From: Escherichia phage vB_EcoP_SU7
Length of the DNA: 64,000 bases
Direction: 5' to 3' (one strand)
Sequence record: NC_070980.1
Shown here piece by piece: positions 14,677 through 46,607 of the stretch (its first letter is position 1; each line of letters begins with the position of its first letter). The translations under genes were made by a program, and so were the position numbers. The notes beneath the pieces were generated by a model, which saw nothing but the letters and a program-made list of their open reading frames with translations, was not told where the DNA came from and ran no database searches.

Positions 14677-14739
14677 AGTGAAACTTGTGAATAAGTAATG
14701 AAACTACTATATCCAAAAGGAAAATGAAAGGAGAAGAAA

Positions 14740-14958
14740 ATGAAAATGATGAAACAGGTAACTTATGGTCTAGCTTGCTTAGGGACAGGTTTTGTGATTT
14801 CCACAGCAGTACCTGTAAATGCAGTAGGCTCTCATTCTATTATAGAAGCTCCTGTAGAGAAGCTTAGTTCTCAATGTAAACAAAGGACCATTCAAAATAA
14901 TTTGGTTGTTATTTGCCCAGACGCTCAATCTTCAGCTCTGAGAAAAATTCTTCCTTAA
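14740..14958 (+). CDS. Small membrane/secreted protein (possible holin-like)
   Basis: 72 aa, one hydrophobic N-terminal segment, strong SD, immediately upstream of the endolysin. Confidence 0.3.
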   Translation: MKMMKQVTYGLACLGTGFVISTAVPVNAVGSHSIIEAPVEKLSSQCKQRTIQNNLVVICPDAQSSALRKILP

Positions 14959-14991
14959 TTGACCTAAAATAACAACAAAAGGAGGTCAAAG

Positions 14992-15483
14992 ATGGACGCT
15001 ATCGCATTGCCGCCTGTACAGATGAGCCTAAGTCCGGCTGGTATGGAGTTTATCATGAAGCATGAAGGCATGAGAACTAAAGCCTATAAAGACTCCGCTG
15101 GAATCTGGACTATATGTGTAGGGGCTACGCGCGATATGAATGGGTATCCAGTAAGACAAGGATTAACGTATTCTATAGAGGATTGTCTAGCTCTGCTAGA
15201 TAGAGACACACAAGACTCTGTTCGTGCTACTCAGAAAAACATAAGAGTTCCTATGCTAGCTCATGAATTTGATGCTGTCACTTCTTTCAACTTTAATGTT
15301 GGTGGTGGTGCTTTGTCAGCTTCAAAACTTAGGAAAGTGATCAACGGAGATGTGAAGGGTGATGTTTACTCAGAGTTCTTACGTTGGGATAAGATAACTG
15401 TTAAAGGTGTAAAGCAGCGGAGTCCGGGACTTCACAATCGCAGGGTTGCAGAAGCAAATCTATACACTACAGGAAAATATTAA
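14992..15483 (+). CDS. Endolysin, GH24 (T4-lysozyme-like) lysozyme
   Basis: N-terminal HEGxxxxAYxDxxGxxTICVGAT catalytic signature; AAAGGAGG SD. Confidence 0.8.
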   Translation: MDAIALPPVQMSLSPAGMEFIMKHEGMRTKAYKDSAGIWTICVGATRDMNGYPVRQGLTYSIEDCLALLDRDTQDSVRATQKNIRVPMLAHEFDAVTSFNFNVGGGALSASKLRKVINGDVKGDVYSEFLRWDKITVKGVKQRSPGLHNRRVAEANLYTTGKY

Positions 15484-33594: not shown

Positions 33595-33819
33595 TTAAAC
33601 TACACAGAATAAATACATTGCTGTTTCAGGGGAAGGTATGTGGTCACTAGGATATCTAACCCTAATCCACTCATCATCTTCTGCTACATAATAAGCCCAA
33701 TAAGACCCATTTTCATTAATAAAGAACTTGAAGGTACAACCAAAGATTTGGTTATTGTGTTCCCATACTGCATGAAACTGAGTAACACCTTCTGGTATTG
33801 TAAGTTCCGCTCTGATCAT
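33595..33819 (-). CDS. Hypothetical protein
   Basis: 74-aa ORF, no motif. Confidence 0.35.
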   Translation of the reverse strand: MIRAELTIPEGVTQFHAVWEHNNQIFGCTFKFFINENGSYWAYYVAEDDEWIRVRYPSDHIPSPETAMYLFCVV

Positions 33820-34082
33820 TGTATTCCTCTCTCCTTTAGAGCTTTAAGCAAACCGTTGTGGTTAGCGGCACAGGTTGTATAAGTGTCCTGATACCACTCG
33901 AGTGTTGTTGCAAGTGCTACTCCCTGTCCACTCTGAAGTAAAGGGAGGTCTACATCACATTCAGCTTTTAGGTTTGTTGGTAAGGGCATTAGCTGCCTGC
34001 TGTTGTCGCTCGTTGAACAAGCCATCAAACTAGAAGCGAGAAAAATCACCAAACAACTCTTTTGCTTTTTCTTTGTAAGCAT
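33816..34082 (-). CDS. Putative o-spanin (outer-membrane lipoprotein)
   Basis: Signal peptide with lipobox-like LMAC, Pro-rich mature region, conserved Cys; start overlaps the 3' end of the HNH gene. Confidence 0.4.
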   Translation of the reverse strand: MLTKKKQKSCLVIFLASSLMACSTSDNSRQLMPLPTNLKAECDVDLPLLQSGQGVALATTLEWYQDTYTTCAANHNGLLKALKERGIQ

Positions 34083-34416
34083 TTTCTGCACCCTCTTGAG
34101 TGCTGTGATAACCAAGCCAAATTACTTTGTTTTGATATCCGATGCGAGCACTCCATTTGTTAATATCCGACCTGTACCCTACACCTTTTATTCCAGTTAA
34201 AGAGTTCTTTTGAACTATTTTGTTGGCATTATTAAGGACAGGTGTTGCTCTTCTTAGATTGCTCCAAGAATTATTAGATTTGTCTAAATCTTTATGGTCT
34301 ATTTGAAAATCAGGAATCTCTCCAGTTTTGATATACCAAGCAATTCTATGAGCTTTGTACTGTTTATATTGATAGGTAATCACTGTATAGCCATCTGTGG
34401 CTTTACAACCTGCCAC
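34030..34416 (-). CDS. HNH-AP2 homing endonuclease
   Basis: HNH_3-type motif HRIAWYIKTGEIPDFQIDHKDLDKSNNSWSNLR plus C-terminal AP2-like DNA-binding domain. Confidence 0.7.
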   Translation of the reverse strand: MAGCKATDGYTVITYQYKQYKAHRIAWYIKTGEIPDFQIDHKDLDKSNNSWSNLRRATPVLNNANKIVQKNSLTGIKGVGYRSDINKWSARIGYQNKVIWLGYHSTQEGAENAYKEKAKELFGDFSRF

Positions 34417-34511
34417 CTTTCCAGCGAATCTTGAATTCCACTGAGCGCTCTTATCCTCAGAATGTTTCCAGTAGAGAAGACCAGAAACCTCATCGTAAGA
34501 TAGATATTTAA

Positions 34512-34853
34512 CTAATTCTTTAATTTCAGTGCCTCCGCTGCTTGTTGCTGTCGTTCATTGAAAAGTCCTACATACTCATCACTAGCACACACATTGTAAA
34601 AAACTGGCTTAGTCTTTTCATAATGCATCTCTTTGTAAATAGTTTCCGTGTTCTTCTTCCAGTTAGATAAACCAGTCAGAACTTTCTGAGCCACTTCATC
34701 AGCAGCCTTAGCTCTCTCAACCTCAATCTCTTGCTGTTTCTTCTCATGGTCAAGAGCATTACTATTACTTCTGTATTGCTCAAACTTGACACCACCAAAG
34801 AAAATAATAGCTGTGAAAATAAGAAAGCCTATATTGTTTTGAAGCTTTTCCAT
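34512..34853 (-). CDS. Putative i-spanin (type II membrane protein with coiled coil)
   Basis: ATG 34853 with GGAG SD; N-terminal TM helix then charged coiled coil; C-terminal about 20 aa duplicated, recoded, at 33961-34020. Confidence 0.4.
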   Translation of the reverse strand: MEKLQNNIGFLIFTAIIFFGGVKFEQYRSNSNALDHEKKQQEIEVERAKAADEVAQKVLTGLSNWKKNTETIYKEMHYEKTKPVFYNVCASDEYVGLFNERQQQAAEALKLKN

Positions 34854-34865
34854 TTTAACTCCAAC

Positions 34866-34888
34866 GAAAAAAGCCACCCGAAGGTGGC
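34866..34888 (-). terminator. Rho-independent terminator (UUCG tetraloop)
   Basis: On the minus strand GCCACC-UUCG-GGUGGC followed by UUUUUU, just downstream of the SSB stop. Confidence 0.75.
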
Positions 34889-34912
34889 TAAGCTATTACA
34901 AGGAGAGATTCA

Positions 34913-35653
34913 TTAGAAAGGGCTGTCATCTTCTTCAAAGGTAGACTGCGGCTCTTCGTTAATAGTAGGGATACTTGGAGTAGCATCTTTCTGTTCAATA
35001 TCAGAAGCTTTAGTAACTTCACGACCAGCCAGAGGGATGTTCTTAGCATCATTAGCTTGGGTCAGAAGATTACGTTGGAATGGGAAGATTGCTTGATAAG
35101 CAGCCAAGTTAGCATCAGTCTCAGCATATGGTTCGAAGAAGATCAACTCACTACGAGGGGCACCTACAGAATCACGATATTTGGTAGGGATTGGAGTGAT
35201 ACTCTTAATGGAGTTTTTCTTCTCACCAGCTTTGTTTACATAGGAATTAACCAGAATGTTAACAGGCTGACCTAGCAGCATATCTTTAAACCAACCCAAA
35301 TCACCTTTCAGTGCTTGAACACTTGGGTCGATCATTTTGATCAGATTCAGAATACCAGAGTTCTTAGCTCGTGGGTTTACGTCGAAAGTTTTAAACTGGC
35401 AAGCAGGACGAGGGTCCAGAGGTTTGCCTTCATTATCAGTCCCTGTTGCATCCACGCCAATCAGTTCAAAAGCCAAGTCCATACGGAAAGCTGGGTTCTT
35501 AGGAGTAACTGCTTTAGTCTTAGGGTCAATCCAAGGGTCACGATTGTGAACACCTAAACCTACAACACGAACAATACGTGCTTCGTACTCACCATCAGGG
35601 ATTACATCGTAGTTGGATTTACGGGATACAGACAGTTCAGGGATCATAGACAT
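34913..35653 (-). CDS. ssDNA-binding protein (T7 gp2.5-like)
   Basis: About 246 aa with acidic C-terminal tail ending ...FEEDDSPF (terminal Phe), sitting with the replication genes. Confidence 0.6.
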   Translation of the reverse strand: MSMIPELSVSRKSNYDVIPDGEYEARIVRVVGLGVHNRDPWIDPKTKAVTPKNPAFRMDLAFELIGVDATGTDNEGKPLDPRPACQFKTFDVNPRAKNSGILNLIKMIDPSVQALKGDLGWFKDMLLGQPVNILVNSYVNKAGEKKNSIKSITPIPTKYRDSVGAPRSELIFFEPYAETDANLAAYQAIFPFQRNLLTQANDAKNIPLAGREVTKASDIEQKDATPSIPTINEEPQSTFEEDDSPF

Positions 35654-39150: not shown

Positions 39151-39302
39151 TAGTGAGTATGATTCCAGTTTAATCCAATCTTACAATCTGATGCAAGAGG
39201 ACATTCCATCTTGAGGTATTCCCCTGCTTTACGAACACATTCTTCAGTGAGGGTACGAAGTTTGTTAACATCATCACGATGTACAGTGAACTGACCTTCA
39301 TC
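39150..39302 (-). CDS. DNA polymerase A C-terminal segment (putative exon 2)
   Basis: Encodes DEGQFTVHRDDVNKL...KIGLNWNHTH*, matching the family A polymerase C-terminus (post-motif-C region and terminal NW..H). Under 60 aa, so absent from the ORF track. Confidence 0.6.
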   Translation of the reverse strand, partial: DEGQFTVHRDDVNKLRTLTEECVRKAGEYLKMECPLASDCKIGLNWNHTH

Positions 39303-39909
39303 CATTCAGTTATTCCCAAATTACTTCGGGTGTCGGACTATATCATAACAGCATAGCTAATTTGCTGTTGTTGGCGCTTCGAGGGTTTCCCTGTTAACCC
39401 CCTACTCCCTTAGGATAGTCTCTACACTTTCCACTTCCGAATCCATCTACAACCGATTCCGAAGCTCACACCAAACTTCTCTGCAAGATGTACACCAGAG
39501 CATTCTGTTTCTAGCCAATAAAGCCTTGCAGCTTCTTGTCTATCTCCATTTCTTCCAGTGTTTGATTCTATTGCATGTTCTGAACCTTCAAGCATTTCTA
39601 AGTGCTCAAGATTGGAACAAGCCCTATTCTTGCATTTGTGATTTATTTCATAACCATCAGGAATAGAACCAAAAGATTCTTCCCAAACATATCTATGATA
39701 CATGACCCATTTGCCATCTATTACTTTTCTGAAATAACCATCTTTGTTAAGTTTGTGTGAGATAGGGATGATACACCCTGTTTCGGTTGTTTCCAAAACA
39801 AGAGTTTTCTTAGCCATATCATCTCCTAATAGCTTAGCTCGGTATTGCCCCCAACTTAATGGTAGGGTTTCACCGAGTTCACCAACTTTTACATGCACAA
39901 TGAAAGTTT
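39303..39909 (-). mobile_element. Intron-like insertion (candidate group I intron) carrying an HNH gene, splitting polA at motif C
   Basis: Upstream segment ends ...ATG CAT (U at the 5' junction); insertion ends ...TGAATG (terminal G); joining gives ...IDMH|DEGQF, restoring an HDE motif C. Core intron structure not verified. Confidence 0.45.
39422..39817 (-). CDS. HNH homing endonuclease (within the polA insertion)
   Basis: ATG 39817 with AGGAG SD; motif YEINHKCKNRACSNLEHLE. Confidence 0.7.
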   Translation of the reverse strand: MAKKTLVLETTETGCIIPISHKLNKDGYFRKVIDGKWVMYHRYVWEESFGSIPDGYEINHKCKNRACSNLEHLEMLEGSEHAIESNTGRNGDRQEAARLYWLETECSGVHLAEKFGVSFGIGCRWIRKWKV

Positions 39910-41604
39910 ATGCATGTCAATAACCTTCGCACAACGAACACCATCCCGCTCAATCCATTTATTGAGGAATAGCATTGCATACTTCATAACAATCGCCCCA
40001 GCGCTCTGTAAGAGTGTATTTAAGGCTTTATGGACCATAACCTTTCCAGTTGCATCTCTTCTCATTGTAATACGACGTCCATCCACACCGTAGATATATC
40101 CACTTTGCGCTTTCTCTGTCATACGTTCAATAAGGATTGCAATACAAGGGTTCTCTGCTAAGAATCTTGCTCTCATGATAGCCCCTTCGTCAGAGCCACC
40201 ACCTACAATACTTCCTAACTTAGCGTCACCTGCCCCATAGTTAAAGGCATAGATAAACGTTTTAGCATTATCACGAGTAGGAAGGCCAGCAAGTTTTTGG
40301 TTATGTGAGTGAATATCTCCTTCTAAAAGAATATCTCTATACATAACAGCAGAAGCTAGACCACGTTCAGCTTCTCGTTTCTTAGCCGGGTTGTTTTCTC
40401 GCTCTGCTTCAGCGAGCATCTCACGACATTCTTTAATAAGGTAGTGAGCTAGCATCCTCAGCTCAAGACCAGAGCCATCGTAACCTAAGAAGATTTCACG
40501 ACCAGCAGGAACATAGAACTTATAGGCACCTACAGGTTTGTCTTTCTTGCCCGGTTTTCCCACTTCGTAGATAATGTTAGTACCCTTTCGTACGTAACAC
40601 CCATCAGGGATATGGTTGGTAATGATGAAAGGATGGTTATGACTATCGTCTGAGGAATAGTCAGATTGAAAAAGACTGCGGCACTCGTGACCAAACAAAC
40701 CGCGAGAAGGAATATTAACAACAATGCGATGTTTAAAACGAAATGTCGGAGTAGCGCAGCTATTAGCTTCGGCGGACAACTTACCATCTTTACGTTCCTT
40801 GTCGATAAGCCCGCTAATCAAACCTAGCCTGTGAGCCGCTACAACGCGTCTCTTAAGCAAACTTCCTACACCCCCTAGCTCACCCCCAAGCCCCTCTTCA
40901 AGAGTCTCCTCAAGGTTTGTAGGGGCTGTGGGCCACTTGTTTGATGTAGCCAAAGCTTTTTTGATTTCATCAAAGGTTACAGGTTTCTTCCTATTCGGAT
41001 TAAGACCTAAACCACTGACGTAGGCTTTCATGTAGTTGACAGTGTGATAACGGAAATGTTTATCCAAAAATCTTCGGATATCAGCATCTATCATCTCCGC
41101 TGTCTGTTTCTCTTTAGCATTACCTCGAATCCAAGCAGAATACCATGCAGAGTATGTACCATACTTCTTCATAGCTCTACGGATTTCAAATGTATTCCAA
41201 GGTTTCTTAGAATAATTCCACTCTGGAGGTATGAAGCCTTCGTCCATCAAGGCTTCTTTGATACGTGCATCTTTCGATGGGTCGAAGTCTACATACTCAA
41301 CGCAAGTAAACGCCCCACCGATATCTTCTCTTTTAAGACCAACTCTGTCACAATAGAGCTGAGGCCACTTCTGTAAAGCACCTGACTTCTTAAAAGGTTT
41401 CGAATAAGTTGAACCATCCACCCGCATTTTGGGGAGGAGAGGAATCAGTTCTTTATCAATATTGACAATAATCTCTTTGAGAAGGTGAACAAACCACCGA
41501 GCGTTTCTTCTGTTGAAGTTGACTCCATGCTTCGCTTGTTTTGAGATTATATCAGCGACTGTCATCTCCGTTATGAAAGGTAACTTATCAGGGTTATCCA
41601 TCAC
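39889..41604 (-). CDS. DNA polymerase A, polymerase domain (T7 gp5-like; putative exon 1)
   Basis: Motif B region RDNAKTFIYAFNYGAGDAKLG and downstream LLQSAGAIVMKYAM; ORF stops 5 codons after DMH, immediately before motif C. Confidence 0.85.
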   Translation of the reverse strand: MMDNPDKLPFITEMTVADIISKQAKHGVNFNRRNARWFVHLLKEIIVNIDKELIPLLPKMRVDGSTYSKPFKKSGALQKWPQLYCDRVGLKREDIGGAFTCVEYVDFDPSKDARIKEALMDEGFIPPEWNYSKKPWNTFEIRRAMKKYGTYSAWYSAWIRGNAKEKQTAEMIDADIRRFLDKHFRYHTVNYMKAYVSGLGLNPNRKKPVTFDEIKKALATSNKWPTAPTNLEETLEEGLGGELGGVGSLLKRRVVAAHRLGLISGLIDKERKDGKLSAEANSCATPTFRFKHRIVVNIPSRGLFGHECRSLFQSDYSSDDSHNHPFIITNHIPDGCYVRKGTNIIYEVGKPGKKDKPVGAYKFYVPAGREIFLGYDGSGLELRMLAHYLIKECREMLAEAERENNPAKKREAERGLASAVMYRDILLEGDIHSHNQKLAGLPTRDNAKTFIYAFNYGAGDAKLGSIVGGGSDEGAIMRARFLAENPCIAILIERMTEKAQSGYIYGVDGRRITMRRDATGKVMVHKALNTLLQSAGAIVMKYAMLFLNKWIERDGVRCAKVIDMHKLSLCM

Positions 41605-42541: not shown

Positions 42542-42859
42542 TCAACTTGAGCTTAAAGCTCCTTTGCGACCGCCTGCTGATTTTCCAGCACGATCTCCAC
42601 TTTTGCCGCCGTTCGAGCGATTTCGAGAGACTGATTCAACACGTAAGTTACTTGACGCATTAGAACCTCCCGACTTGATTGATCGTTTGTGTCCAACATC
42701 TTTACCTCGGACAGCAGCTTTTCCATCGCGCTTTTCAACGATGCGACGTGCACGGTGGCGCTGAGCATCTCCGCTCTTGCTCCCAATTCCCGTTTCACCG
42801 CGCTTGATCGCAGTCCTTCTTTCTTGAGCATAGTCTCTTTTTCCTACATGATCTGCCAT
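42542..42859 (-). CDS. Hypothetical basic Gly/Ser/Lys/Arg-rich protein
   Basis: 105-aa low-complexity basic ORF; an alternative helical ORF (42553-42831) occupies the same DNA in another frame, so the true frame is unresolved. Confidence 0.3.
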   Translation of the reverse strand: MADHVGKRDYAQERRTAIKRGETGIGSKSGDAQRHRARRIVEKRDGKAAVRGKDVGHKRSIKSGGSNASSNLRVESVSRNRSNGGKSGDRAGKSAGGRKGALSSS

Positions 42860-43188
42860 TAGATTTCTCCTGATTCTCTTTGGTTAAAGGTGTGGATGGC
42901 GTGGCAATTAGCACACAATATCCTGCACTTCCTCATCTCTTCTTTTATTTGAGATAAAGATCTGGTGTGCCCTTTGGAGAGTTCGAATGACTTAGTTAAT
43001 GGATTTAAATGATCAAACTGAAGAGCAGATGCGTGGCCTTTAAAACCACATTCAGAGCACCCGTAGAATGTTTTAACTCTACGAATAAAAGCTAGTTGCC
43101 TAAACCTTCTTCTCTCATTGTCTGCTTTTCTCTTATCTCTATTTCCTGGGTCGGCCCATCTACACGAGTCATTGCAAAACCTCTGCAT
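42859..43188 (-). CDS. HNH endonuclease
   Basis: CSECGF...QFDHLNP...LCANCH motif. Confidence 0.65.
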   Translation of the reverse strand: MQRFCNDSCRWADPGNRDKRKADNERRRFRQLAFIRRVKTFYGCSECGFKGHASALQFDHLNPLTKSFELSKGHTRSLSQIKEEMRKCRILCANCHAIHTFNQRESGEI

Positions 43189-43421
43189 TATATACTTCGT
43201 TACAAATGGTACCTTACAGGTTTCACATTCCTTGTGGTATGTTGCTATTTTGACCCCCTACTCAGTGTAAACAAAACCTTCTTTATCGGCTGACTCTTTT
43301 GCAAAAGTTTTTGCATCTTCAAGAGTGTCAAAAGTCTCAGTGATATAAACTTCTCGAGGCCCGTTTTTGTATACTACAGAAAACTTACCACCCTTAAGTT
43401 CTATTGGTTTCACAACAGTAC

Positions 43422-44162
43422 TCATTGAGACCCCTTCTCCATTGCTTTAACAATCGCCTTACAGAAACCAGAACGAACAATGTCATCTGATTCACCATCT
43501 ACAATCTCAGCGAACTCATACAGATCATGTTCATCAATAAAGTTAGTAGCCCAAGTAAGACCACTCTCACGACCACGCATATCATGCTGGTTAGTATCAC
43601 CCATGCAGAACAGCTGAGAGGTTTCTCCCAATCGGGTCATGATTGAGAAGGCTTCATCCTTAGTTGTGTTCTGGAACTCATCTACGATAACAATAGCATC
43701 ATTGAAAGAACGACCACGGAGATATTCCAGAGGTACGAACTCAATGTTACTGTTACCGAGCTGGCATTCATAGAACCCCTTACCATATCGCTGAGTAATA
43801 ACATCAATGATGGGCATCAGGTAAGGTTCAAACTTCTCACGCATTCCTCCCGGAAGTAACCCAAGAGAGTTGCCCATGCCAACTGAAGGTCGACTCAGAA
43901 TGATCTTCTGAATCTTACCGCTCTTCAGTGCATCAATAACTGTGGAAGTGATTACAAAGGTCTTACCACAGCCCGCAGGAGCGTCTGTGAACACAACTTG
44001 TTTAGTCTTAATAGCATTGAGTAGCTCAGACTGAAACTGGTTCTGAGGGACTACAGGCTTTGCTAAAACCACCTCTTCATACTCTCGCTTACCCTTATGA
44101 GTAACAAGTGCTTCCCGACGAAGGTCTTTCCGTGATTCTTTCCGTGATTGACGACGACTCAT
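43422..44162 (-). CDS. phoH: PhoH-like ATPase
   Basis: Walker A VVFTDAPAGCGKTF and Walker B AIVIVDEFQN. Confidence 0.8.
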   Translation of the reverse strand: MSRRQSRKESRKDLRREALVTHKGKREYEEVVLAKPVVPQNQFQSELLNAIKTKQVVFTDAPAGCGKTFVITSTVIDALKSGKIQKIILSRPSVGMGNSLGLLPGGMREKFEPYLMPIIDVITQRYGKGFYECQLGNSNIEFVPLEYLRGRSFNDAIVIVDEFQNTTKDEAFSIMTRLGETSQLFCMGDTNQHDMRGRESGLTWATNFIDEHDLYEFAEIVDGESDDIVRSGFCKAIVKAMEKGSQ

Positions 44163-44344
44163 TTACGCTCTCCAATTTCTTCGTAATGACACTCAGTAGT
44201 TAAGCAATCTTTACAGATTGCTGTATAAACCCTGACGTTAGTAAATCGTTTGTTCTTCCCTTTGGTTGGAGAGCCTTTAGCAAGCTCTCTGATAACCTTG
44301 TTACTTAAATGAAGGTTTGTTCCTTCACATCTAGAGCACTTCAT
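44159..44344 (-). CDS. Hypothetical small Zn-ribbon protein
   Basis: CSRC...CKDC pairs. Confidence 0.35.
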   Translation of the reverse strand: MKCSRCEGTNLHLSNKVIRELAKGSPTKGKNKRFTNVRVYTAICKDCLTTECHYEEIGERK

Positions 44345-44660
44345 GGTTCATGTCTTTATGAATCCTGTAAACAGCTGTCGCCATACAAGCAACAGCCTCG
44401 TTGTGTGGGAGATGCATTCCTGTAGAACCATCCCAATCTTTGAACTCAGCGTCAAAGACTCCGGTAGGCTCTGGATACAGAGCTTGCAGCTCCACTAGAT
44501 CATTAGCAACTTGTTGCCATTTATCATCAGACCAGATAGGGTCATCCAACCAGTAATACAAATAGGAATGGATGATCAATTGCCTTCTGTGCCGATTTAT
44601 TACTTCAGCGGGACTTATCTCACTTCCATTTGAAGTCCTAAATGTATTACTGTCAATCAT
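44331..44660 (-). CDS. Small protein resembling the N-terminal Ia domain of NAD-dependent DNA ligase
   Basis: LIIHSYLYYWLDDPIWSDDKWQQVANDLVELQALYPEP parallels the LigA N-terminal H.YLY..D.P.I.D..YD.L..EL...PE pattern; only 109 aa, no adenylation domain. Confidence 0.35.
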   Translation of the reverse strand: MIDSNTFRTSNGSEISPAEVINRHRRQLIIHSYLYYWLDDPIWSDDKWQQVANDLVELQALYPEPTGVFDAEFKDWDGSTGMHLPHNEAVACMATAVYRIHKDMNHEVL

Positions 44661-44842
44661 TTCACAACCTTAAATTTGAATGTTGTTGGGTGATAATAGT
44701 GCAACCTGTTAATGGTGTGCTTTGTTTCAAGGTATAACCTGCAAGAGTGACACATGACATGAGTCAAACCGGTTACAGGATTAGGTTTAAAGTTGGCGAC
44801 AGTCTTCTCTTTCTTACAGAAGCTACAGACTTTCTTTTCCAT
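44657..44842 (-). CDS. Hypothetical Zn-finger protein
   Basis: CSFCKK...CHSCR motif; start set at internal Met. Confidence 0.35.
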   Translation of the reverse strand: MEKKVCSFCKKEKTVANFKPNPVTGLTHVMCHSCRLYLETKHTINRLHYYHPTTFKFKVVK

Positions 44843-45056
44843 CTTTTCTCCAGTGGTCAACGAATTGCTGAAACACTTTATGGTCGAAGGTGAAACCGCG
44901 AGCAATCCCACACTCTACGAAAGTAGAAGGCATATAATCTACATCACCTTCAGATGTATGACCATAGATTTGAATAAGCTTCTTAATCTTATCCTTCTCT
45001 CTTCGAGGAAGCATTCTAAATGCCTCCTGAATATCTGTAATATGTTTTATCTTCAT
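44823..45056 (-). CDS. Hypothetical protein
   Basis: 77-aa ORF. Confidence 0.3.
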   Translation of the reverse strand: MKIKHITDIQEAFRMLPRREKDKIKKLIQIYGHTSEGDVDYMPSTFVECGIARGFTFDHKVFQQFVDHWRKDGKESL

Positions 45057-45202
45057 AAGAAATTCCTGCTAATCCTCTGAGTTGTGGGAACAGCAATATT
45101 CACATACTCCACAACAAGGGCAGATTTCTACACTTGGGTCATATGCATCATCAACTGTCATCCCACACTTGGTGCAGAACACGTCATCATCTTCTTCCAA
45201 TA

Positions 45203-45850
45203 TTAACTCTCCAAAGTTTTCTTCAGGGCTGCCCACGAGATTGGGTAGAGTTTAGCCATCTCTTCGTCTAGAGATTGGGCAAACACTCGAACTTCATATT
45301 GAGCGTGAGATGAGAGTCGCTGACGACACAACTCAAACCAGCCATACAAAGAACCAGTCCAGTACCAAGTAGTTATCATACCTTGAGGCAAAACAAATCT
45401 AGCCTGTTCCGGAGCAATAAATTTAATCAATTCATCATAACTAGCAAGAGATGCTTCATACGCAGAGTTAAACAAAGCCAAAGCTTTTGCCTCCTCTTCC
45501 CCTTCAAGAAGCGCTCCAGAACCAGAGTGTAAATCATCTGGACGAGAGAAAATTTCTTTAGGTATGAAAATATCCACTGCTCCGTCTTTGTATCTACGAC
45601 TCATCTCATTCCAAGAGAATCCAACTTGATGTTTTTGTAGCTGTCGTGCGATTGCTATCGGGGCTTCACACCGGAAGCTTGCTTGTGGGTGACGAAAAGG
45701 GCTTACATGGCGTTCTCGAGCTAAGAAGTTAATAAGCCGAGTATCATTTTCTTTCAGCTCCTCCCTTTCTACTCCCATAGTTACACGAGCGGCATTTACC
45801 ACAGTAAGGTCTGATCCGAAGTTATCAATTAGTGAAGCTTTGATTGTCAT
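45203..45850 (-). CDS. thyX: Flavin-dependent thymidylate synthase (ThyX-like)
   Basis: ThyX-like ...FRHPQASFRCEAPIAIARQLQKHQVGFSWNEMSRRY; the usual RHR triad appears as KHQ here, but the alignment is by eye. Confidence 0.7.
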   Translation of the reverse strand: MTIKASLIDNFGSDLTVVNAARVTMGVEREELKENDTRLINFLARERHVSPFRHPQASFRCEAPIAIARQLQKHQVGFSWNEMSRRYKDGAVDIFIPKEIFSRPDDLHSGSGALLEGEEEAKALALFNSAYEASLASYDELIKFIAPEQARFVLPQGMITTWYWTGSLYGWFELCRQRLSSHAQYEVRVFAQSLDEEMAKLYPISWAALKKTLES

Positions 45851-46316
45851 TTATATAAATCTCCTTGACTTTATTATATTCCCTAGAGGCCTCTTCTACG
45901 GTTGAGAAGAGTCCTATATGCTTAGATTTAAATACAGCCCGATAAGCAATAGAACCACTTTTCCTTTTATGAACAGTTACTCCAATTACTCCAGTGGATA
46001 AGTTATTACTCTGTGCTACCCTATTAAGACTGTTTCCTGCTTTAGTAGTCCCTCTAAGATTCTCTCTTTTGTTGTTCAACCTGTTGCGGTCCAAGTGGTC
46101 TACCTCTTCAGGAAGCGAACCAGTGTCCCACCAGTAAGCAAGACGGTGAGCGTAATACTTAACACCTTTATAGATGATTCTCAAATACCCATTGGTATTT
46201 ACAGAACCAGCTATAGATCCTTTGTGTCCTTTTCCATAAGTTTTAACCCATCGGAAATCTCCAGTCAAAGGGTCGTAATCAAGAGCTTCTTTTATTGATA
46301 GGTCAATGTCATTCAT
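45825..46316 (-). CDS. HNH-AP2 homing endonuclease
   Basis: HNH_3 motif YAHRLAYWW...VDHLDRNRLNNKRENLR plus AP2-like C-terminal domain; overlaps the thyX start. Confidence 0.7.
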   Translation of the reverse strand: MNDIDLSIKEALDYDPLTGDFRWVKTYGKGHKGSIAGSVNTNGYLRIIYKGVKYYAHRLAYWWDTGSLPEEVDHLDRNRLNNKRENLRGTTKAGNSLNRVAQSNNLSTGVIGVTVHKRKSGSIAYRAVFKSKHIGLFSTVEEASREYNKVKEIYINDNQSFTN

Positions 46317-46331
46317 CCGTGAACTTCCTTA

Positions 46332-46607
46332 TTACTTTTTGTTCAGAGCTGTATCCAAAAAGGCTTTCAGGTTTGCTTCAGTTTGCATACCGGACAAGCT
46401 GTAATGAGCACCACTGTTCTTATCAGGGATGACAAAGGCTGGGATACTGCGAACACCATATTCAATGGCTCGCTCTCGACCATCACCTTCGGTGATATTT
46501 ACTTCTTCAACTTCTACGTTGTAATCATCTACAACCTTCTTAAACACAGGAGCCATAGCTGCACAAGGTGCACATGAATTACTATAAAACTTAATCACTT
46601 TACTCAT
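46332..46607 (-). CDS. Thioredoxin/glutaredoxin-fold protein
   Basis: ATG 46607; active-site SCAPC (CxxC) near the N-terminus, about 91 aa. Confidence 0.6.
   Translation of the reverse strand: MSKVIKFYSNSCAPCAAMAPVFKKVVDDYNVEVEEVNITEGDGRERAIEYGVRSIPAFVIPDKNSGAHYSLSGMQTEANLKAFLDTALNKK

Follow-up and report, generated by a model that had tools for sequence, protein, structure and literature searches.

In the window, i.e., the whole 64,000-nt stretch of Escherichia phage vB_EcoP_SU7 (NC_070980.1) that has been analysed, a gene for a homing endonuclease of the HNH-AP2 type stands between the genes of two spanins, i-spanin and o-spanin, which overlap each other in endonuclease-free relatives. The phage is a phiEco32-like coliphage (Gordonclarkvirinae) with PAS59, Bas86, Bas87 and vB_EcoP-101114UKE3 (in the following UKE3) as its closest records, and according to the open reading frames (ORFs) of the window, the spanin and endonuclease genes of this region are all located on the minus strand. 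We consider it likely that the insert represents a homing cassette of the HNH-AP2 type that is free-standing and probably still mobile, and that patches both genes of the overlap which it interrupts. In this interpretation, a compact cassette with a homing endonuclease gene (HEG) would have colonised the dual-coding i-/o-spanin overlap of phiEco32-like coliphages. The insert carries a diverged i-spanin tail, the HEG of 164 codons, and then a Shine-Dalgarno sequence (SD), an ATG and a whole lipoprotein signal peptide, by which the overlapped gene pair has been turned into two separate and intact genes (Table 1). The endonuclease ORF itself is free-standing and embedded in neither an intron nor an intein.

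The insertion has become apparent by comparison with UKE3, which is endonuclease-free, has flanks 99% identical to those of the window, and carries a single i-spanin tail within an overlapped spanin pair. The UKE3 i-spanin terminates with ...DEYVSLFNERQQQAANALTNKPKS and stop, and its o-spanin (MKRLSQFFTMCVLVMSMSAC followed by STSDNS...) begins within the i-spanin gene in the +1 frame, resulting in a 116-nt overlap (nt 233-348). Identity of the window to UKE3 ends at 34570 and returns at 34022, and the compared region measures 1078 nt in the window vs 533 nt in UKE3. The insertion point is found after i-spanin nt 284, i.e., 52 nt into the overlap, two codons ahead of the o-spanin lipobox Cys and 20 codons ahead of the i-spanin stop. 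Upstream of it, the old o-spanin start has been left behind as a dead-end ORF, while the same ATG opens MKRLSQFFTMCVLVMSMSAC in UKE3. An earlier reading of this DNA (in the following, the sequence-only reading) had proposed that an HNH-AP2 endonuclease gene was inserted into the overlap of the spanin genes and had predicted endonuclease-free relatives in which one i-spanin tail overlaps o-spanin; the former is borne out by the 547-nt insert, and the latter have been found, UKE3 among them. Among eight HEG-less genomes, the overlap is moreover the most conserved part of the locus (majority identity of 0.90-0.94 vs 0.77-0.87 elsewhere), as would be expected of a homing site in double-coding DNA.

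The assignment of both flanking ORFs as spanins, which the sequence-only reading had assumed, is upheld by family matches and signal features. The i-spanin matches phrog_1152 'Rz-like spanin' (E=1.5e-32), carries an N-terminal hydrophobic segment that resembles a transmembrane domain (IGFLIFTAIIFFGGV, residues 8-22), and aligns to the 'Rz-like spanin' of UKE3 up to 34570. The o-spanin matches phrog_2425 (E=1.7e-23) and, weakly, the 'Rz-like spanin' family phrog_456 (E=0.008), and its mature part is identical to that of UKE3. A lipoprotein signal pattern (PS51257-like) and a lipobox are present with Cys22 in the window and Cys20 in HEG-less relatives, and a homolog in phage Paul has been annotated as o-spanin with a LipoP SpII score. 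PhiEco32 and ECBP2 have been listed among the overlapped two-component spanins in a curated survey (Kongari et al., 2018, PMC6139136); a literature search for experimental data on phiEco32-like spanins has found none.

Table 1. Features of the spanin-endonuclease locus and of other endonuclease-related regions, in coordinates of the window.
Feature	Position	Strand	Remarks
i-spanin gene	34853-34512	-	113 aa; ATG 34853, TAG 34514-34512; codons 1-94 and first two bases of codon 95 native, last ~19 codons cassette-borne
Native o-spanin start remnant	34621-34568	-	ATG 34621, MKRLSQFFTMCVLVMSM, TAG 34570-34568; 17 codons, +1 frame inside i-spanin
Insert relative to UKE3	34569-34023	-	547 nt replacing UKE3 dinucleotide CA; alignment of window, UKE3 and Bas86
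Cassette-borne i-spanin tail	34568-34512 (GGA...TAG)	-	GLFNERQQQAAEALKLKN and stop; also holds endonuclease SD and start codon
Shine-Dalgarno GGAGG	34536-34532	-	7 nt upstream of ATT; purine-rich equivalents in types B, C and D
HNH-AP2 endonuclease ORF	34524-34030	-	ATT 34524-34522 to TAG 34032-34030; 164 codons
SD-like AGAGGG	34096-34091	-	8 nt upstream of ATG 34082, within endonuclease ORF
o-spanin gene	34082-33816	-	88 aa; ATG 34082; mature part native
Displaced native i-spanin tail	34023-33961 (GGC...TGA)	-	GLFNERQQQAANALTNKPKS and stop; two codons past endonuclease stop, same frame as endonuclease
Hairpin and T-run resembling an intrinsic terminator	34872-34889	-	between upstream gene and i-spanin; not part of the cassette
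DNA polymerase insert	39302-39910	-	608 nt vs UKE3; HNH ORF 39898-39422, phrog_6254
109-aa ORF	42859-43188	-	HNH-like ...CANCH... motif
Second HNH-AP2 paralog	45825-46316	-	163 aa; phrog_99, E=1.3e-45; normal ATG; adjoins ThyX-like ORF

The i-spanin ORF that starts at ATG 34853 ends in ...CASDEYVGLFNERQQQAAEALKLKN and stop, and the sequence-only reading had noticed that this end recurs downstream of the HNH-AP2 gene. When the two tails alone have been compared by BLASTP, 14/19 identities with E = 9e-9 were obtained, and the repeat span that had been given, 33961-34570, has proved accurate to the base. Codon comparison has likewise reproduced the 22/30 nt that both copies have in common over the LFNERQQQAA core; the eight differing nucleotides comprise seven third positions and one first position of a Leu codon. 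A single 31-nt stretch of UKE3 (33842-33872) matches both window copies in BLASTN, and the downstream copy is identical, at 100% of nucleotides, to the one native tail of UKE3. That this copy also encodes the o-spanin lipobox and mature N-terminus in another frame has been seen as well: read one frame over, the native-tail DNA yields ...SSLMACSTSDNSRQLMPLPTNLKAEC..., i.e., the lipobox LMAC (34028-34017) followed by the mature lipoprotein, which begins with CSTSDNSRQLMPLPTNLKAEC. Q and A are abundant in the core, and the repeat could in principle be a chance or low-complexity resemblance with no shared origin. We give next to no credence to this notion, as HEG-less genomes already refute it, their native tail being equal to the downstream copy base for base, and as it is further opposed by the significance of the tail pair and by a tail relation that holds in four cassette types.

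The origin of the upstream copy has turned out to differ from what was proposed. The sequence-only reading had suggested that the overlap was duplicated so that both genes remain intact. Only the i-spanin half is present twice, and both genes are indeed intact, while the o-spanin half, i.e., the signal peptide, has not been duplicated; nor is the upstream tail a local duplicate. It is cassette-borne, as it is conserved per cassette type across backbones, is saturated at synonymous sites and holds the ribosome-binding site and start of the endonuclease. In type A, the type present in the window, the tail is identical in all 7 loci across differing backbones. Among codons that specify the same amino acid in the native and cassette tails, 11/14 differ in type A, 8/10 in type B and 9/9 in type C, with switches such as Ser AGC to TCT, Arg CGA to AGA and Leu TTG to CTT. 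As this saturation contrasts with flanks that are 99% identical to the HEG-less relative, the tail appears to be an old passenger of the cassette rather than a fresh duplicate. The amino-acid changes of the tail coincide with the embedded SD and start, where native AAT-GCC-CTT-ACC reads GAG-GCA-CTG-AAA-TT.

The second patch concerns the o-spanin. Codons 1-17 of its gene (34082-34032) coincide with the last 17 codons plus stop of the endonuclease gene, relative to which they occupy the +1 frame, and from ATG 34082, MLTKKKQKSCLVIFLASS continues via the lipobox into the native mature o-spanin. The new signal peptide, MLTKKKQKSCLVIFLASSLMAC, is unrelated to the native one. Since the AP2 match ends at residue 159 of 164, it has been overprinted on the C-terminal part of AP2. 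A signal peptide has been found in the +1 frame of the HEG 3'-end at every locus that reaches this region, and in four HNH-AP2 homologs that are not associated with spanins (phiEB49, KIL4, S147, SUSP1), the same frame contains stops and no signal peptide. The presence of the peptide in this frame mostly follows from the amino-acid sequence of the endonuclease and not from its codon choice. The displaced native i-spanin tail is no gene in its own frame; nevertheless, it is present in every HEG-carrying locus that extends past the endonuclease stop, and has been retained because the same DNA encodes the mature N-terminus of the o-spanin.

The arrangement of an HNH gene between an i-spanin body and an intact downstream tail is also what a group I intron with an HNH endonuclease would produce if splicing joined the two. 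GenBank writes the 'Rz-like spanin' of Bas86 and Bas87 accordingly as two joined pieces with the HNH gene in between, boundaries at ...TATGTAG/GCTTG... would restore an in-frame i-spanin, and the window contains, at another locus, a HEG insertion that is indeed intron-like. However, an Rfam scan of 33700-35000 has given no match to Intron_gpI (RF00028) or any other ribozyme at E<=10, while the same search has returned Intron_gpI with E=1.5e-4 in the insert of the DNA polymerase gene, which serves as a positive control. Out of 547 nt, 495 belong to the HEG ORF and a further 44 nt upstream of it to the i-spanin tail, which leaves no room for a P3-P9 core. Excision of exactly the inserted bases would produce a 2-nt frameshift relative to UKE3 (2 nt fewer), and the choice of boundaries that keeps i-spanin in frame leaves the o-spanin frame interrupted by a TAG and does not offer the usual pair of U(-1) and terminal G. 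Finally, the i-spanin already possesses a complete, conserved and homologous tail with its own stop, and a new o-spanin signal peptide would be unnecessary if the insert were spliced out. An intron has thus only a very slim chance of being the correct description of this locus. For the polymerase insert itself, the Rfam group I match (39421-39314) is sub-threshold with 26.3 bits and E=1.5e-4; the polymerase frame stops after ...KVIDMH and resumes with DEGQFTVHRDD..., and this insert is probably an intron-borne HEG.

The endonuclease ORF is bounded by stops and read in a frame different from that of the i-spanin, whose end its start overlaps by 13 nt in the window. It matches phrog_99 'HNH endonuclease' (E=2.3e-58) and Pfam HNH_3 (PF13392, E=9.9e-14, 51.1 bits vs a cutoff of 24.8). 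AP2 (PF00847) is matched over profile positions 1-53 of 54 by residues 110-159 with E=2.8e-6 and 28.0 bits, which is below the cutoff of 33.3, and precomputed Pfam results for relatives accordingly read 'AP2 (weak)'. The motif ...AHR...IDHKD...SNNSWSNLR is intact in all loci, and the length is exactly 164 codons in 16/16 complete ORFs (the window and 15 others), a count that leaves out locus L019, in which the ORF is cut by the contig end. No ATG, GTG or TTG precedes the conserved N-terminus in the window, where GTG 34416 is the first canonical start, and the same is true for 15/15 loci of types A to C. At the aligned first codon, ATT is found in 7/7 type A loci, ATC in the 8/8 loci of types B and C, and GTG or ATG in type D, with a purine-rich SD ahead of it in every case; the four non-spanin homologs have an ATG at the equivalent N-terminus and end at the same place. 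The 36 codons upstream of the first ATG/GTG/TTG show a ratio of nonsynonymous to synonymous differences (pN/pS) of 0.11-0.29 between types A to C, equal to that of the ORF body, and of 0.11-0.45 once B-C and within-C pairs are included. Such low values argue that these codons are translated, and the endonuclease probably starts at AUU (AUC in types B and C), as judged from conservation, from the selection on these upstream codons and from the alignment with GTG/ATG of type D. In E. coli, infC and pcnB are the only confirmed natural AUU starts (bioRxiv 10.1101/063800). Like the presumed start of the window endonuclease, they combine AUU with a normal SD and show low or regulated expression. A fusion of i-spanin and HEG by -1 frameshifting has been considered and rejected as a general mechanism, as a U UUA AAA heptamer is found in type B but is absent from types A and C; in type B (L003, L007, L008) it shortly precedes the endonuclease start, in the frame of the i-spanin, and is probably incidental.

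The unusual start raises the alternative that the endonuclease is a decaying or domesticated remnant, which has lost its start and no longer homes, and that the locus has been shaped by vertical inheritance and ordinary recombination only. In addition to the missing canonical start in all 15 loci of types A to C, gene callers skip or truncate the ORF, and between the window and PAS59, only nonsynonymous changes have been observed. These observations stand against a ratio of nonsynonymous to synonymous substitution rates (dN/dS) of 0.03-0.24 in every endonuclease comparison with measurable dS, over a range of dS up to saturation and with the N-terminal 36 codons included, although a later start would leave these untranslated, which indicates that the endonuclease is kept by purifying selection. 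The invariant length, the intact HNH motif, the SD conserved at the right spacing ahead of AUU/AUC, and the fact that AUU and AUC do initiate in E. coli likewise speak against this alternative, and we regard a mere remnant as unlikely.

In the window and 16 further loci, four diverged cassette types have been distinguished that occupy the same site with the same layout. Type A (window, PAS59, Bas86, Bas87 and three metagenome loci) has a tail ending in ...AAEALKLKN, the start ATT and the signal peptide MLTKKKQKSCLVIFLASSLMAC. Type B (EK010, E20-1, KM01 and three metagenome loci) has the tail ...RQ[EK]EA[KE]RVLKSKE, the start ATC and the signal peptide (V/M)HIKKKLLSCTGILLAFSLSAC, and type C (two metagenome loci) the tail ...TRQEEAKRILKSKE, again ATC, and the signal peptide ...HTKKKLLSCLGILLAANLTAC. 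In type D (two metagenome loci), a tail ...EVQTKSRE[VA]L.GRTQ..P is combined with GTG or ATG and with MMKKLKASILIIAALNLLG..., after which the contigs end; the i-spanin of this type is only ~55% identical. All these tails are directly followed by a stop. Types A and B share about 65% identity in the endonuclease, and the endonuclease start overlaps the i-spanin tail at every locus that reaches this region. The HEG is carried by 7/97 related phage records. Of 25 representatives of i-spanin clusters, taken from genomes and metagenomes, 13 possess cassette-type and 12 native tails, and the HEG follows the tail in 9/9 cassette-type clusters whose context has been read; a HEG-less genome that keeps a cassette-type tail, i.e., the footprint of HEG loss, has been found in none of these nine. 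A scan of IMG/VR for relatives has yielded five loci, all HEG-less.

Each cassette type is found in different backbones, with recombination breakpoints at the cassette. Metagenome locus L014 combines the 5' part of a Kuravirus-type i-spanin (97% to IMGVR12, 73-75% to the window group) with a Suseptimavirus-type o-spanin (95-96% to Bas87 and IMGVR9); EK010 is the reverse mosaic, its mature o-spanin being identical to that of Paul, and type C occurs in both backgrounds. Such mosaic flanks are as expected of homing with co-conversion, and ordinary recombination may contribute. The distribution also bears on the direction of the change, since the separated arrangement with endonuclease might be ancestral and the overlapped form might have arisen by precise loss of the endonuclease. 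Kongari et al. have left the direction open for T5 and Shivani, and the relics, i.e., the old o-spanin start and the native tail, are each held by the frame of the other gene, so that they do not by themselves appear to give a direction. However, the overlapped HEG-less form is present in 90/97 related records and in every sublineage, including i-spanins that are only 55% identical, and by loss, one and the same functional double-coding sequence of 116 nt would have to be recreated time and again. Furthermore, cassettes of one type occur nested within backbones that are unrelated, and the breakpoints coincide with their edges; the cassette tail gives the impression of having been derived from the native tail and remodelled to accommodate an SD and a start codon. 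An ancestral separated state is therefore rated as quite improbable.

For the preferred homing cassette, the following course of events may be envisaged. During co-infection, the enzyme would cut the uninterrupted overlap of HEG-less genomes, presumably in or near ...GATGAGTATGTCAGCTTGTTCAACGAGCGAC... of the HEG-less allele, and repair from the HEG-carrying genome would copy the cassette in, together with flanking markers. The synonymous divergence of the tail would keep the left junction from giving rise to a new target site, and would also limit deletion of the cassette via recombination between direct repeats. The HEG would be translated at a low level from AUU/AUC, possibly coupled to the termination of i-spanin 10 nt downstream. 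The i-spanins of HEG-less homologs (P0001-P0025) vary exactly at the junction residues (YVSL, YVIM, YILM, YIRM, YVKL, VISL), between nearly invariant stretches on either side. Target-site variation under endonuclease pressure could account for this, as could a position that is simply tolerant.

Several observations weigh against the homing interpretation or parts of it. The recoding of the type A tail does not differ significantly from random codon choice (11 vs 8.0 expected, P=0.08), and thus gives no significant sign of selection for self-immunity. The endonuclease of the window differs from that of PAS59 (L005) by four nonsynonymous and no synonymous changes (D11N, Y18C, H21Q, E145D), which could indicate a recent relaxation of selection; this pattern is unlike the strong purifying pattern of all deeper comparisons. 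Initiation at AUU/AUC in E. coli reaches ~0.02-3% of that at AUG (bioRxiv 10.1101/063800), and with such weak initiation the HEG may be barely expressed. Folding of 34580-34470 has revealed no significant RNA structure at the HEG SD and start (z=+1.4). Regarding the o-spanin patch, simulation has shown the +1 frame to be open in 88-100% of synonymous HEG recodings, and an equally hydrophobic +1 frame occurs in 6-19% of them (P=0.06-0.19 per type), so that codon choice offers little evidence for selection on the overprinted signal peptide. Signal peptides have been judged by pattern rules alone, and at position -4, the type C peptide does not conform to the strict PROSITE-like pattern. Finally, homing and its cleavage site, initiation at AUU and the processing of the lipoprotein have all been inferred from sequence.

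Beyond the locus, the phage carries several endonuclease genes, as seen from a second HNH-AP2 paralog and a 109-aa ORF (Table 1) in a region (42832-46342) without alignment to UKE3 at the BLAST threshold used. The plus-strand ORFs 33640-33882, 33875-34033, 34003-34200 and 34731-34916 have been rejected as spurious, with no PHROG family matched. Within the cassette, no sigma-70 promoters or terminators beyond shuffle expectation have been detected; only the terminator upstream of i-spanin exceeds it. In this phage group, as seen in UKE3 (L025), holin and endolysin belong to the plus-strand structural/late block (14701-15444), and the spanins (33666-34158) are located ~19 kb away in a minus-strand block, adjoining the phage sigma factor and dNMP kinase. 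In current annotations, the HNH ORF of Bas86 (L002 644-1536) and Bas87 (L006 444-1336) is truncated to 116 aa, and the o-spanin of UKE3, EK010, PAS59 and others has been given an internal Met as its start and is listed as a hypothetical protein of 57 aa. The annotations of these phages thus look wrong or incomplete, as the endonuclease is truncated or missed, the o-spanin shortened and the i-spanin written as an intron-style join.

The locus offers a base-level view of how a selfish nuclease enters DNA coding for two proteins that are essential for lysis and kills neither, which is harder than the invasion of a single gene. It is a compact natural case of overprinting, in which a signal peptide is derived from the alternative frame of a DNA-binding domain, and adds a probable non-AUG start in 15/15 loci. 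If this holds true, a host gene depends on the DNA of a selfish gene for its export signal, the 3' end of the endonuclease is locked in place even when the nuclease decays, and a functional signal peptide born by overprinting is available as a natural and datable example. Literature searches have found no prior description in phiEco32-like phages, and in the BASEL paper, the HEG insertions that are mentioned all belong to another locus. As far as found, four features have not been described before: a signal peptide overprinted in full, a tail with a second role as initiation region of the endonuclease, an AUU/AUC start that has become fixed, and cassettes that have diverged jointly into four types.

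Elements that bring along a replacement for the gene end they displace are known from other systems. Phage 21 and e14 in icd, as well as prophages in tRNA genes, carry a diverged, largely synonymous replacement gene end. As in the window, the target gene stays functional via the carried-in end, but these elements integrate by integrase-mediated site-specific recombination and repair a single gene. Free-standing HEGs in essential coding sequences have reportedly been described with mobE in nrdA of Aeromonas phage Aeh1, where function is kept. Unlike in the window, nrdA is left as two reassembling polypeptides, with no duplication or replacement and no overlapping pair. HEG-associated duplication of a C-terminus is said to have been reported in 1994 for Allomyces atp6. 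Such C-terminal duplications have also been found in mitochondrial atp6 and cob of Endoconidiophora resinifera (PMC6279837). The mitochondrial cases resemble the window in that an endonuclease ORF is placed between a gene with a substitute C-terminus and a displaced copy of the original 3'-end. In these, however, the displaced copy is a pseudogene fragment and no second gene is involved, whereas the displaced tail of the window is kept as the other frame of a live gene.

The closest parallel, and a published precedent for a self-patching spanin HEG, is found in T5-like phages, to which the phiEco32-like cassette is analogous. [quoted passage not shown] We have re-examined Shivani (L020 24382-25827) against T5 (L031) and found a cassette tail, SGSLEYCRDERKNK and stop, in place of the native TGNLEYCSQPQSQSQAVHKK and stop, while the native tail, NLEYCSQPQSQSQAVHKK and stop, is located just past the HEG stop in the frame of the HEG. 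The HEG start and the i-spanin end share 20 nt, and the ATG of the o-spanin is positioned 13 nt within the 3' end of the HEG; the Shivani-type HEG is a minority allele (19/445 records). Both systems thus have in common a HEG in the i-/o-spanin overlap, a replacement tail, a retained native tail and overlapping starts; the account of Kongari et al. includes neither the retained native tail nor the overlaps or the recoding. They are unrelated in nuclease family (GIY-YIG vs HNH-AP2), in phage family and in spanin family, and as the spanin sequences of the window and Shivani are unrelated by eye, the resemblance is one of analogy and not of homology. In Shivani, the cut lies four codons into the o-spanin, where the ATG and about four residues have been replaced, and the HEG has a normal ATG; in the window, the cut lies at the lipobox, a whole signal peptide of 20 residues is supplied, and the HEG probably begins with ATT. 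The cassette would provide a mechanism for the transition from overlapped to separated spanins, which Kongari et al. had left open, and together with T5 and Shivani, the window suggests that dual-coding spanin overlaps are preferred homing sites. We incline, by a modest degree, to the view that spanin overlaps are recurrent landing sites for self-patching HEGs: here with three overlapping layers of code, in which the tail would act as AUU/AUC initiation region and the signal peptide would be overprinted on the last AP2 helix, and in T5-like phages with a GIY-YIG element that would have reached the same solution independently.

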